64,000 nucleotides of DNA from Roseibacillus sp. (GCA_965242925.1 CBDEUM010000014.1:384001-448000); one strand, 5' to 3'. Shown: positions 22,947 through 26,643, counted from the first letter of the stretch. A program made the numbers and translations. Notes: a model not told the origin generated them from the sequence alone.

Positions 22947-23465
22947 CTACTTCAAGCCGTCCAGGGCCTTCAACAGGTCCTCGCCCTGCCCGCCGGTAGA
23001 CGCTTTCTCGTCCTTCCAGACCAGCTTGCCATCCTTGAAGAGGTAAGCCTGGCGGGAGGCAAATTTCCCCCGGTGAGGCACTCCAAAGGCCTTAACCACC
23101 GTGCCGTCAACGTCAGCCAGGAGATCAAAGGGCAGCTTCTGACTCTCCGCGAAAGTCTTCTGGGCAGCCACCTTGTCGAAGGACACCCCATAGATCTTCA
23201 CTCCCTTTTTCTGCAGTTTCTCGTTTGCGTCCCGCAAACTACACACCTGCTTCGTTCATCCCCCGGTAGAGGCCTTGGGATAGAAGAAGAAAAAGGCCAG
23301 TCCCTCGGCGGCCACCTCGTGAATCCTGATCACCTCCCCCTTGTGATTCGTGACCTCCGCCCGGGGAAGGGCTTTGCCAAGTTCAAGGGTTTCCCCCATC
23401 GTAGAGTCCGCGAGGGCGAAAATCGAACCAACCCCCGCCAGCAGTGCCGTAATCTTGCGCTTCAT
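22947..23465 (-). CDS. bcp: Peroxiredoxin (BCP/PrxQ) with signal peptide; probable selenoprotein (UGA at 23256-23258 read as Sec)
   Basis: One continuous frame FFFYPKASTGG-UGA-TKQVCSLRD...GVSFD...F...LPFDLLAD; the UGA sits exactly at the peroxidatic Cys of the PKxxTxGC motif. Confidence 0.9.
23212..23255 (-). promoter_or_regulatory. Candidate bacterial SECIS element
   Basis: mRNA 3' of the UGA: GUUUGCG-GGA-CGCAAAC 7-bp stem, G-starting loop 23 nt from the UGA, possible lower stem UGUA/UGCA. Confidence 0.75.
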
Positions 23466-24537
23466 GACCCGACCCATATCCCGTCCCCGCAGGAATGCCA
23501 AAAGGTTTTTCCTGCTGCTGACAGTGCTTGCTCTCGGGAGCGGACTGCTGTGGGTCGTCCCCTGGTTCAAGAATCGCGTTGGGAGAGGGCAACGGAACAA
23601 CCCGCCCGAACTGACTGAGGTTGACTCCGGCGATCGCCCCCTCATGGGCACTACTGCACGCATCGTGGTCCATGTTGGGGACGTGGAAAAAGGACAGGCC
23701 GCCATCGAGGCCGCCTTCCAGCGGGCCGAGGAGATCAACGCCATCTGCAGTGACTATAACCCGGAGAGCGAGATCATGAGACTCTGCCGTGAGCCCATCA
23801 ACCGCCCCATTCCAGTCTCCGGGACCCTGGCTGCCGTCCTCGCCCACGCCCGGACCATCGCGGAGCTCACCGAGGGCTCCTTTGACCCCACCCTGGGGGG
23901 CTTCACCAAGCTCTGGCGCAGATCGAAGCGGAAGCAGGAACTTCCCGATCCCGTTCTCCTGAAGAGAGCGCGCCAGGCTGCGGGATGGGAAAAATTCGAG
24001 GTCGAGATTGAGAATCGCGTGGTCATCGTGAAGGACGAAAACCTCCTCTTTGATCTGGGCGGGATCGCCAAGGGATACGCCGCCGATGAAATGCTCAGCG
24101 TGATCACCGCCCGGGGGATTCCCTCCGCGATGGTGGCGGTGGCGGGCGATGTCCGACTGGGAGCCCCACCCCCCGGCCGGATCGGATGGGCGGTCGGCAT
24201 CAGGACCCTCGGGGCGGACATCGAGCAGATTATCCAAGTCTCCAATTGTGCTGTCTCCACCTCCGGAGATCTCGAGCGTTACGTGGAAATAGAGGGAACG
24301 CGCTACTCGCATATCATTGATCCCGGCACGGGCCTCGGCCTCACCCGCCGCATCGCCGCCACGGTGGTCGCACCCACCGCCGTGCAGAGTGACCCGCTGG
24401 CCACCTTCTGCTGCATCAGGCCCGAACTCGCCCGGAAAGTCTTCGCCGCCGGGGAAATCTCCTGCCGCATCGTCGGTCTGGGAGGCGGGCCCTACGATCA
24501 CAGGACCCAGCAGTTTCCCGCCTTCACCCTCCCCTAG
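23464..24537 (+). CDS. apbE: FAD:protein FMN transferase
   Basis: N-terminal TM anchor; MGTT, FDPT, DLGGIAKGYAAD, STSGD, YSHIIDP. Confidence 0.93.
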   Translation: MTRPISRPRRNAKRFFLLLTVLALGSGLLWVVPWFKNRVGRGQRNNPPELTEVDSGDRPLMGTTARIVVHVGDVEKGQAAIEAAFQRAEEINAICSDYNPESEIMRLCREPINRPIPVSGTLAAVLAHARTIAELTEGSFDPTLGGFTKLWRRSKRKQELPDPVLLKRARQAAGWEKFEVEIENRVVIVKDENLLFDLGGIAKGYAADEMLSVITARGIPSAMVAVAGDVRLGAPPPGRIGWAVGIRTLGADIEQIIQVSNCAVSTSGDLERYVEIEGTRYSHIIDPGTGLGLTRRIAATVVAPTAVQSDPLATFCCIRPELARKVFAAGEISCRIVGLGGGPYDHRTQQFPAFTLP

Positions 24538-24643
24538 TATTGCTGCCCCAACTGGTGGTAGTTCCTGCCGTGCCGCTGCCGACACCGGGCCGGACCCAGA
24601 AAATTCTCGCAAACTCCTCCCCACCACCTTTCATCTCCGCGCT

Positions 24644-25809
<1,166 letters not shown>

Positions 25810-25813
<4 letters not shown>

Positions 25814-26643
25814 AGAAAACCACATTCAACCAGATCGTTTTCAGCCTGGCCACCATCGCATGGGGGATCGTGCCGGTCTATTTCTACGCCTGGGGCCTCA
25901 TCGATAAATACCTCAACGAGTCCTTTCACCTGATCGCTCTCATCGGCGGACTGGCCATGATGGTCCTCGGCCTCTTCAACCTCATTCATGCCAGTCGCCA
26001 CCTGAGCTGTGGACACGATCACAGCCATGAGCACGGGAAGAAAGACGATCACGGACCGGCCCACGACCACCACGAGCAGAACCCCGTAGCCGCCCTTTGC
26101 CTCATGATTTTCCCGGTCATCCTCTGCACCGGCTTTACCAAGCACGAATATTCCAAGGAGGCCCTCCGCTGGAAAGGGCTCTATAAGCAGCGGACCCTGC
26201 GTTCGCTCTACTCCAACTACAATGCCGAGTTCACCCGAGAGCTTCTTGAGAAGCGAACCCCCAGGACCGGGGAGGGCAATTTCCTGCTTCAGTTCACCGA
26301 GCTCTACTGGTCGGCGGGCGATGAGAAGATCATGAAGATCTACGAGGGTTTGCCGGCCCAGCTTGAGGGACGACTCATCGAGGAGGACCCCGATCTCGAC
26401 CACGACGCCAACCGCAAGCGCCTCTACCGCGTGGTGATGACTTGCTGTGCCGCCGATGCCCAGGTGCTCGGGGTGCCCCTGCAATTTGGAGGTTCCCTTC
26501 CAACGCTGCCTGAGAAGAGCTGGGTGACGGCCAGGGGCAAGGTCGCTTTCGAGTTGATTGACGGGCAGTACTTCGCCTACCTCAAGGACTGTGAGGTGGA
26601 GGCCACTGAAGCTCCCGATCCCCGCGCACAGAGTCGCCGCTGA
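25810..26643 (+). CDS. YcgQ/DUF1980-like membrane protein
   Basis: N-terminal TMs, His-rich loop, MTCCAADA motif; overlaps the permease stop (GTGA). Confidence 0.85.

Follow-up and report, generated by a model that had tools for sequence, protein, structure and literature searches.

In the Sargasso Sea catalogue, an entry named 'Peroxiredoxin (Prx)' (COG1225, TxxU motif) comprises 43 genes and ranks second in abundance among its selenoprotein families (Zhang, Fomenko & Gladyshev 2005, PMC1088965), and a 2026 review places Prx (PF00578, TxxU) among the established selenoprotein families (PMC13188914). The first-pass annotation of the DNA analyzed here had pointed to selenocysteine (Sec)-containing peroxiredoxins from marine metagenomes, and the TxxU family as presented in PMC1088965 bears this out. 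The bSECIS model, as given in the legend to Fig. 2 of the review, comprises a loop of 3 to 9 nt, a stem of 4 to 16 bp, a G in the first two loop positions, a spacing of 16 to 37 nt, and an MFE of ≤ −7.5 (PMC13188914).

We analyzed a 64,000-nt stretch of DNA (the window) from Roseibacillus sp. (GCA_965242925.1 CBDEUM010000014.1:384001-448000). With a probability of about 0.92, we read its minus-strand positions 22947..23465 as a single intact gene encoding a presumably exported peroxiredoxin of the BCP/PrxQ type (atypical 2-Cys) with a peroxidatic Sec, that is, as a genuine selenoprotein gene.

A peroxiredoxin frame with one in-frame UGA

The complete gene spans 172 codons on the minus strand (22947..23465), from an ATG at 23465-23463 to a TAG stop at 22949-22947, and encodes a putative precursor protein. 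A single in-frame TGA at 23258-23256 (codon 70) is the sole break in this frame. It had been proposed that the ORFs 23256..23744 and 22947..23246 constitute one minus-strand frame, and indeed nothing except this TGA separates them; when TGA is translated as U, the active-site stretch FYPKASTGG-U-TKQVCSLRD is recovered as predicted. Likewise, the N-terminus reads as previously described, the sequence from the ATG at 23465 being MKRKITALLAGVGSIFALA.

The expectation that standard gene callers would split the gene proved correct. The exact 69-residue N-terminal and 99-residue C-terminal pieces are both on public record as separate proteins, the former in a 35-member cluster and the latter in a 36-member cluster. 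The clusters go by the name 'hypothetical protein [Roseibacillus sp.]' (N-terminal pieces, 'hypothetical protein') and in one instance by 'peroxiredoxin Q/BCP'. With C in place of U, the full-length sequence is absent from the public record as seen by a look-up that is blind to U-bearing records. Annotation of the locus would thus change from two fragments to one enzyme. The stretch or part of it occurs in 20 public runs from 13 studies, which are marine, seawater or unspecified metagenomes where a source is named. In two studies, contigs from RNA libraries span the UGA (X15, 23047-23363; X16, 23130-23446); since RNA libraries can hold DNA, these contigs are a hint of possible expression. A further contig, X18, falls short of spanning the TGA with 31 nt on each side, and the RNA-library contigs leave parts of the stretch uncovered.

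The product is a BCP/PrxQ-like (atypical 2-Cys) peroxiredoxin. Residues 30 to 149, which span the UGA, match Pfam AhpC-TSA (PF00578) with 96.3 bits against a cut-off of 26, and BCP/PrxQ enzymes make up the best sequence matches among solved proteins, namely Dot5 (2a4v), BcpB of M. tuberculosis (5epf), and BCP of A. pernix (2cx3). An AlphaFold2 model built with 26 homologs has a mean pLDDT of 87.6, falling below 50 at residues 1 to 18 only. In a Foldseek search of the PDB, ranks 1 to 16 were all of the BCP/PrxQ type (TM to target, 0.81 to 0.88) and included Dot5, BcpB, Bcp1, Bcp4, the PrxQ proteins of Xanthomonas and Xylella, and one Burkholderia homolog. NCBIfam equivalog cut-offs were missed by the nearest model, Bcp NF006960 (90.9 versus 140 bits), and by PrxQ NF053650 (62.4 versus 260 bits), and the score with the PrxU model NF040737 was far below the cut-off (27.6 versus 270 bits). 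Hence, the protein is best described as a BCP/PrxQ-like peroxiredoxin that is the equivalog of no named enzyme.

The active site is complete on both sides of the UGA. The PxxxTxxC(U) motif and the active-site Arg are invariant in 26/26 aligned sequences; these residues comprise P63 (23277-23279), T67 (23265-23267), and R138 (23052..23054, minus strand, as are the others), which form the peroxiredoxin catalytic set, together with U/C70 and C75. In alignments to 5epf and 2cx3, U70 (23256..23258) falls on the peroxidatic Cys (CP) and C75, a TGT codon at 23241..23243 that lies 5 residues past Sec, on the resolving Cys (CR) of the motifs CTKEAC and CTKELC, respectively. The U-x4-C arrangement with U at the peroxidatic position, as assigned in the first-pass annotation, therefore agrees with CP and CR of solved BCP/PrxQ enzymes. 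From this alignment and from the TGA/TGC comparison described below, UGA codon 70 would be read as Sec.

The recoding signature among related genomes

The locus and its relatives carry a recoding signature. To survey the gene, a six-frame search was run on 61 genomes (the source genome and 60 relatives) at E ≤ 1e-10, and it returned a match in 57 of them; within the source genome, only one gene matched at this threshold. Exactly one TGA was present in all 20 places with 64 to 99% identity, which belong to 18 of the 20 same-genus genomes; one of the remaining two (G007) has a Cys form, and the other (G015) gave no match. For the locus analysis, one locus per genome was used, comprising 18 Sec loci (L019 to L036) and the next 12 loci (L037 to L048), with the second copies in G012 and G010 left out. 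The CP column holds TGA in 18/18 same-genus Sec loci versus TGC in all 12 more distant loci. A wider scan of species genomes covered 80 loci, with TGC in 64, TGT in 14, TGA in 1, and no motif in 1, and is biased against Sec forms because one of its two search patterns required Cys. Its lone TGA, at 73% identity, belongs to a MAG that bears the title Roseibacillus sp., and is accompanied by the same hairpin as described below. Thus, the interchange of TGA, TGC, and TGT among homologs at codon 70, which had been suggested as a check, was found, together with a conserved frame 3' of the TGA.

A sequencing or assembly error that turned a true TGC or TGT into TGA deserves next to no credence. We found no support for it; the TGA stands in 18 independently assembled genomes, and public contigs (4 runs, 4 studies) that cover 23256-23258 list no difference there, nor any in the hairpin.

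Selection on the two halves of the gene was compared by pooling 153 pairs of Sec forms. The dN/dS was 0.11 in codons 71 to 172, 3' of the TGA, versus 0.17 in the mature codons 25 to 69, with a dS of about 1.4. Decay of the downstream half in close relatives, which had been named as an outcome that would speak against a selenoprotein, was not seen; instead, the value of 0.11 indicates purifying selection. Among the variants 3' of the UGA in public contigs, 8/9 are synonymous. Judging from these substitution patterns, the part of the gene 3' of the TGA is translated. The entry of its halves as separate proteins, together with the lack of selA in the assembly (see below), would fit a pseudogene, in which a Cys-type peroxiredoxin was inactivated by a nonsense mutation, the two ORFs being what is left of it as it decays. 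This is highly improbable, however, given that 18 of 20 genomes of the genus retain this TGA across 64 to 99% identity, that the low downstream dN/dS is found with synonymous sites near saturation, that the catalytic Arg138 encoded 3' of the TGA is invariant, and that nearly all downstream population variants are silent. An intact selenoprotein gene remains our preferred reading.

The second part of the signature is a bSECIS-like hairpin, GUUUGCG-GGA-CGCAAAC, on the minus strand at 23223..23239, within codons 76 to 81; it is defined by an RNAalifold consensus, by pairing, and by frozen codons. Its perfect 7-bp stem consists of a 5' arm at 23239-23233 and a 3' arm at 23229-23223, which enclose the loop at 23232-23230. 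The hairpin had been reported as lying just 3' of the UGA with a GGA loop, and the distance from the UGA to the loop is exactly 23 nt, as stated at that time. Loop (GGA), stem (7 bp), the G in the loop, and spacing (23 nt) all fall within the bSECIS model, and the hairpin alone folds at −6.5 kcal/mol, above the −7.5 threshold of the model. A 60-nt fold reaches −14.2 kcal/mol (z = −2.67; 2/200 shuffles were as good), a value that depends on a nonconserved lower stem. This lower stem, GCAG/CUGC in the single-sequence fold, was rejected as a conserved feature, as it is missing from the alignment fold. Furthermore, a hairpin of at least 7 bp under the same loop and spacing rules follows 3,269 of 40,000 random TGA triplets of the genome (8.2%), so the hairpin by itself is weak evidence and takes its significance from comparison.

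In that comparison, the hairpin is confined to Sec forms (18 Sec versus 12 Cys loci), and Cys-form homologs show no such fold (z = +0.5). Across the hairpin codons 75 to 82, synonymous diversity amounts to 0.245, versus 0.649 in the remaining downstream half; codons 75 to 79 (TGT AGT TTR CGG GAC) are fixed in every one of the 18 Sec forms, with as many as 7 different codons occurring at the corresponding sites of Cys forms. The stem pairs in 119/119 cells, compared with 28.6 to 42.9% when the partner is slid. One stem pair covaries (G-C, 9; A-U, 7; G-U, 1), a count of covarying pairs that 417/500 shuffles equal; the covariation is probably a single event, since the rows with A-U and G-U group into one clade of 9 rows. 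The residues around the UGA and in the 3' arm also differ between the two forms. The codon preceding the UGA (codons 68 and 69 lie at 23259-23264) is GGA in 18/18 Sec forms versus 1/12 Cys forms; among Sec forms with a legible codon, residue 68 is Gly in 15/17, as against Pro in 12/12 Cys forms; and residue 81 (23223-23225) is Asn (AAC/AAT) in every Sec form versus Tyr or Phe in 10/12 Cys forms.

Separately, about a dozen distant peroxiredoxin-like matches (30 to 37% identity) in related genomes also have one in-frame TGA, examples being G017:C102:50-523, G051:C128:631-1077, G010:C27:10557-11045, and G033:C66:41908-42318. This suggests that the order may hold further Sec-containing peroxiredoxin paralog families.

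Sec decoding genes of the source genome

The first-pass annotation had implied a Sec decoding system in this organism. Its assembly comprises 4.58 Mb in 42 contigs and is 89.87% complete, and three components are present in it. The tRNA-Sec (selC) scores 59 bits with Rfam and is called SeC, with anticodon tca, by ARAGORN. SelB, a protein of 653 residues, scores 303.7 bits (cut-off, 242) and contains the GTPase, the beta-barrel, and both winged-helix domains. SelD scores 372.8 bits and has a Sec codon of its own (U in SSCAGUASKL); selD lies outside the window, at G000:C14:573853-574776 (L017, 1480-2500). An 8-bp hairpin with a GUC loop stands 33 nt past the selD UGA; shuffled sequences fold just as well (z = −0.22), and the hairpin was dropped as an in-genome comparator on that ground. 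A global reassignment of TGA was rejected, as TGA ends 1,858 of 3,461 long frames, being the commonest stop, and RF2 is encoded (476.5 bits versus a cut-off of 370).

The fourth component, selA, gave no match in the assembly with either TIGR00474 or PF03841, so the claim of a Sec decoding system was borne out for selB, selC, and selD; selA is missing from the assembly, an absence best explained as an assembly gap. Of the 19 other genomes of the genus, 18 have selA above the cut-off, and the exception is 70% complete. Four relatives share a colinear block, gcvP-gcvT-selA-pheS-pheT, which found no match in the source genome; pheT gave no match there and pheS just a 20.8-bit match (cut-off, 237), while searches for both were positive in 14/14 control genomes. 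The surroundings are missing as well. Only 2 short pieces (0.6 to 5.8 kb) of the 110-kb selA contig of the closest relative match the source genome, and 14 to 20 kb around selA of three more relatives yielded zero blastn matches to it. In these comparisons with the closest relative and three more, a break point of the selA region at a contig edge of the source genome was not located. Phenylalanyl-tRNA synthetase, encoded by pheS and pheT, is essential in bacteria. Because these indispensable genes are missing too, the selA block is taken to be unassembled rather than lost, and other absences in this assembly are to be read with caution for the same reason. In 4 of the 19 selA matches (G002, G015, G013, and G019), selA lies about 0 to 1.2 kb from a contig end, which suggests that something near selA breaks short-read assemblies in the genus.

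These data bear on whether the UGA might be decoded here other than as Sec, by near-cognate read-through with Trp or Cys, or whether the gene might be silent through a true loss of selA. The failure of two models to find selA, and the lack of any counterpart in the assembly for tens of kilobases flanking selA of four relatives, are what such a reading would predict. We nevertheless consider it very unlikely, because the missing block includes pheS and pheT and is thus unassembled, because selB, selC, and a Sec-containing selD are intact, because a conserved SECIS-like hairpin accompanies the TGA forms only, and because RF2 is encoded in a genome in which TGA is the commonest stop. Decoding of the UGA as Sec is therefore the reading that we retain. 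Under it, SelB loaded with GTP and Sec-tRNA(Sec) would bind the 7-bp GGA-loop hairpin, which begins 16 nt past the UGA, and, competing with RF2, would bring Sec to codon 70.

Predicted export, possible origin, and known counterparts

The peroxiredoxin gene is monocistronic, being convergent with a gene for an FGE-sulfatase protein and divergent from a gene of the ApbE flavin transferase family (23464..24537, plus strand; Pfam ApbE, 2.7e-63; N-terminus beginning with MTRPISRPRRNAKRFFLLL). The likely ATG of ApbE (23464-23466) overlaps that of the peroxiredoxin back to back in the sequence CATG (23463-23466), such that the promoter and leader of each gene would lie inside the coding region of the other. 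The 16 nt upstream of the peroxiredoxin ATG are near-identical across the genus. ApbE adjoins 18/18 Sec loci and 2/12 Cys loci, including the same-genus Cys form, and this shared neighbor marks the Sec forms and the Cys forms as orthologs. An ArsP_1-type permease and a DUF1980 protein are encoded downstream of ApbE (24317-26643), and the permease is syntenic in 16/18 Sec loci.

Codons 1 to 24 (23394..23465, minus strand) encode a predicted Sec-type signal peptide, as judged by inspection and homolog alignment. Its parts are MKRK, then ITALLAGVGSIFALA, and then an end in TMG, with ETLELGK following the predicted cut. In 30/30 homologs, Sec and Cys forms alike, a basic N-terminus is followed by a hydrophobic core of 12 to 15 residues and by a small residue in position −1, ahead of a conserved E/D-P/T-L-E-x-G. 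Solved cytosolic BCPs align from residue 26 on and lack the N-terminal extension. The dN/dS in codons 1 to 24 is 0.40, a relaxed yet real constraint. These features make it quite probable that the peroxiredoxin is exported by means of its N-terminal signal peptide. With a cleavage site placed by alignment alone, the hydrophobic stretch could instead serve as a membrane anchor that stays uncleaved, or the protein could be cytoplasmic, so that a genuine selenoprotein would not be released to the periplasm. We hold this to be unlikely, since the n-region, the hydrophobic core, and the small residue at −1 recur throughout the homologs, since the extension is absent from the solved cytosolic enzymes and disordered in the structural model, and since the codons concerned are under constraint.

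For the exported enzyme, a catalytic cycle can be drawn from the family. The precursor would be cut after about residue 24 following export by its signal peptide. The U70 selenolate would attack the peroxide, giving a selenenic acid, which C75 would resolve through an intramolecular Se-S bond. Regeneration would call for a thioredoxin-fold reductant that receives electrons across the membrane via a DsbD/CcdA-type protein. DsbD-family proteins are the usual electron route to envelope thiol reductases, and a DsbD_TM protein is encoded elsewhere in the source genome.

As for the origin of the Sec form, a maximum-likelihood tree of 64 sequences requires one change for the 19 Sec rows (support, 80/85; 84% of bootstrap trees). 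The Sec rows are nested among Cys forms, and their sister is the same-genus Cys form L037 (99/94). A single Cys-to-Sec gain is the simplest, if unproven, reading of this tree, whose root is a midpoint only. The 5' arm GTTTGCG is already present in two Cys forms, L037 and L042. We therefore entertain, at somewhat less than even odds, a single recent Cys-to-Sec conversion in one verrucomicrobial genus, with the SECIS built from a half-hairpin that already existed in the coding sequence. In that scenario, completion of the 3' arm may have fixed residue 81 as Asn, and the conversion may have come with the change of Pro68 to Gly and with the invariant GGA before the UGA. If this is true, the enzyme would make a Se-S bond in the periplasm. 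Whatever its history, the genus offers a clean Sec/Cys ortholog pair that is useful for studying SECIS origin inside coding sequence.

Compared with Cys-type BCP/PrxQ enzymes (BcpB, 5epf; A. pernix BCP, 2cx3; Xanthomonas campestris PrxQ; yeast Dot5, 2a4v), the present protein shares the fold, the CP-x4-CR spacing, and the Pro/Thr/Arg set, and differs in the predicted replacement of CP by Sec and in its 24-residue predicted N-terminal export signal. PrxU of Eubacterium acidaminophilum is reportedly a Sec-containing peroxiredoxin, said to have been described by Sohling and colleagues in 2001. It has the peroxidatic Sec in common with our candidate and belongs to another subfamily, as the NF040737 score indicates. 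With regard to recoding, the E. coli fdhF SECIS has a bulged U. The element found here resembles the fdhF type and the consensus bSECIS (Zhang & Gladyshev, as rendered in PMC13188914) in being an intragenic 3' hairpin with a small loop that starts with GG, and its 23-nt spacing and 7-bp stem lie within the consensus ranges. The hairpin here differs in that it is a triloop, has no bulged U, and has a low isolated stability.

The closest match in kind is the marine-metagenome Prx family, with which the locus shares PF00578, TxxU (T67-G-G-U70), a marine habitat, a peroxidatic Sec, and widespread Cys homologs, so far as the family is portrayed in PMC1088965 and PMC13188914. For this family, those portrayals mention neither a signal peptide nor Verrucomicrobia, and the terms 'signal peptide', 'periplasm', and 'Verrucomicrobi' have zero occurrences in PMC13188914. 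Our literature search returned nothing linking 'selenoprotein' with 'Roseibacillus', no Sec peroxiredoxin of Verrucomicrobia by title or abstract, and no exported Sec peroxiredoxin. General knowledge of selenoproteins is unchanged by the locus, the family having been catalogued since 2005; what it would add is a presumably exported U-x4-C peroxiredoxin among the selenium-dependent envelope defenses of a marine verrucomicrobial genus. For such a location there is a parallel in Caulobacter, whose PprX is a Cys-using envelope peroxiredoxin reduced via a DsbD-like transporter. By analogy, PprX would serve as the precedent for an extracytoplasmic peroxiredoxin running on DsbD-imported electrons, with a DsbD_TM protein available in the Roseibacillus genome and Sec in the place of Cys.
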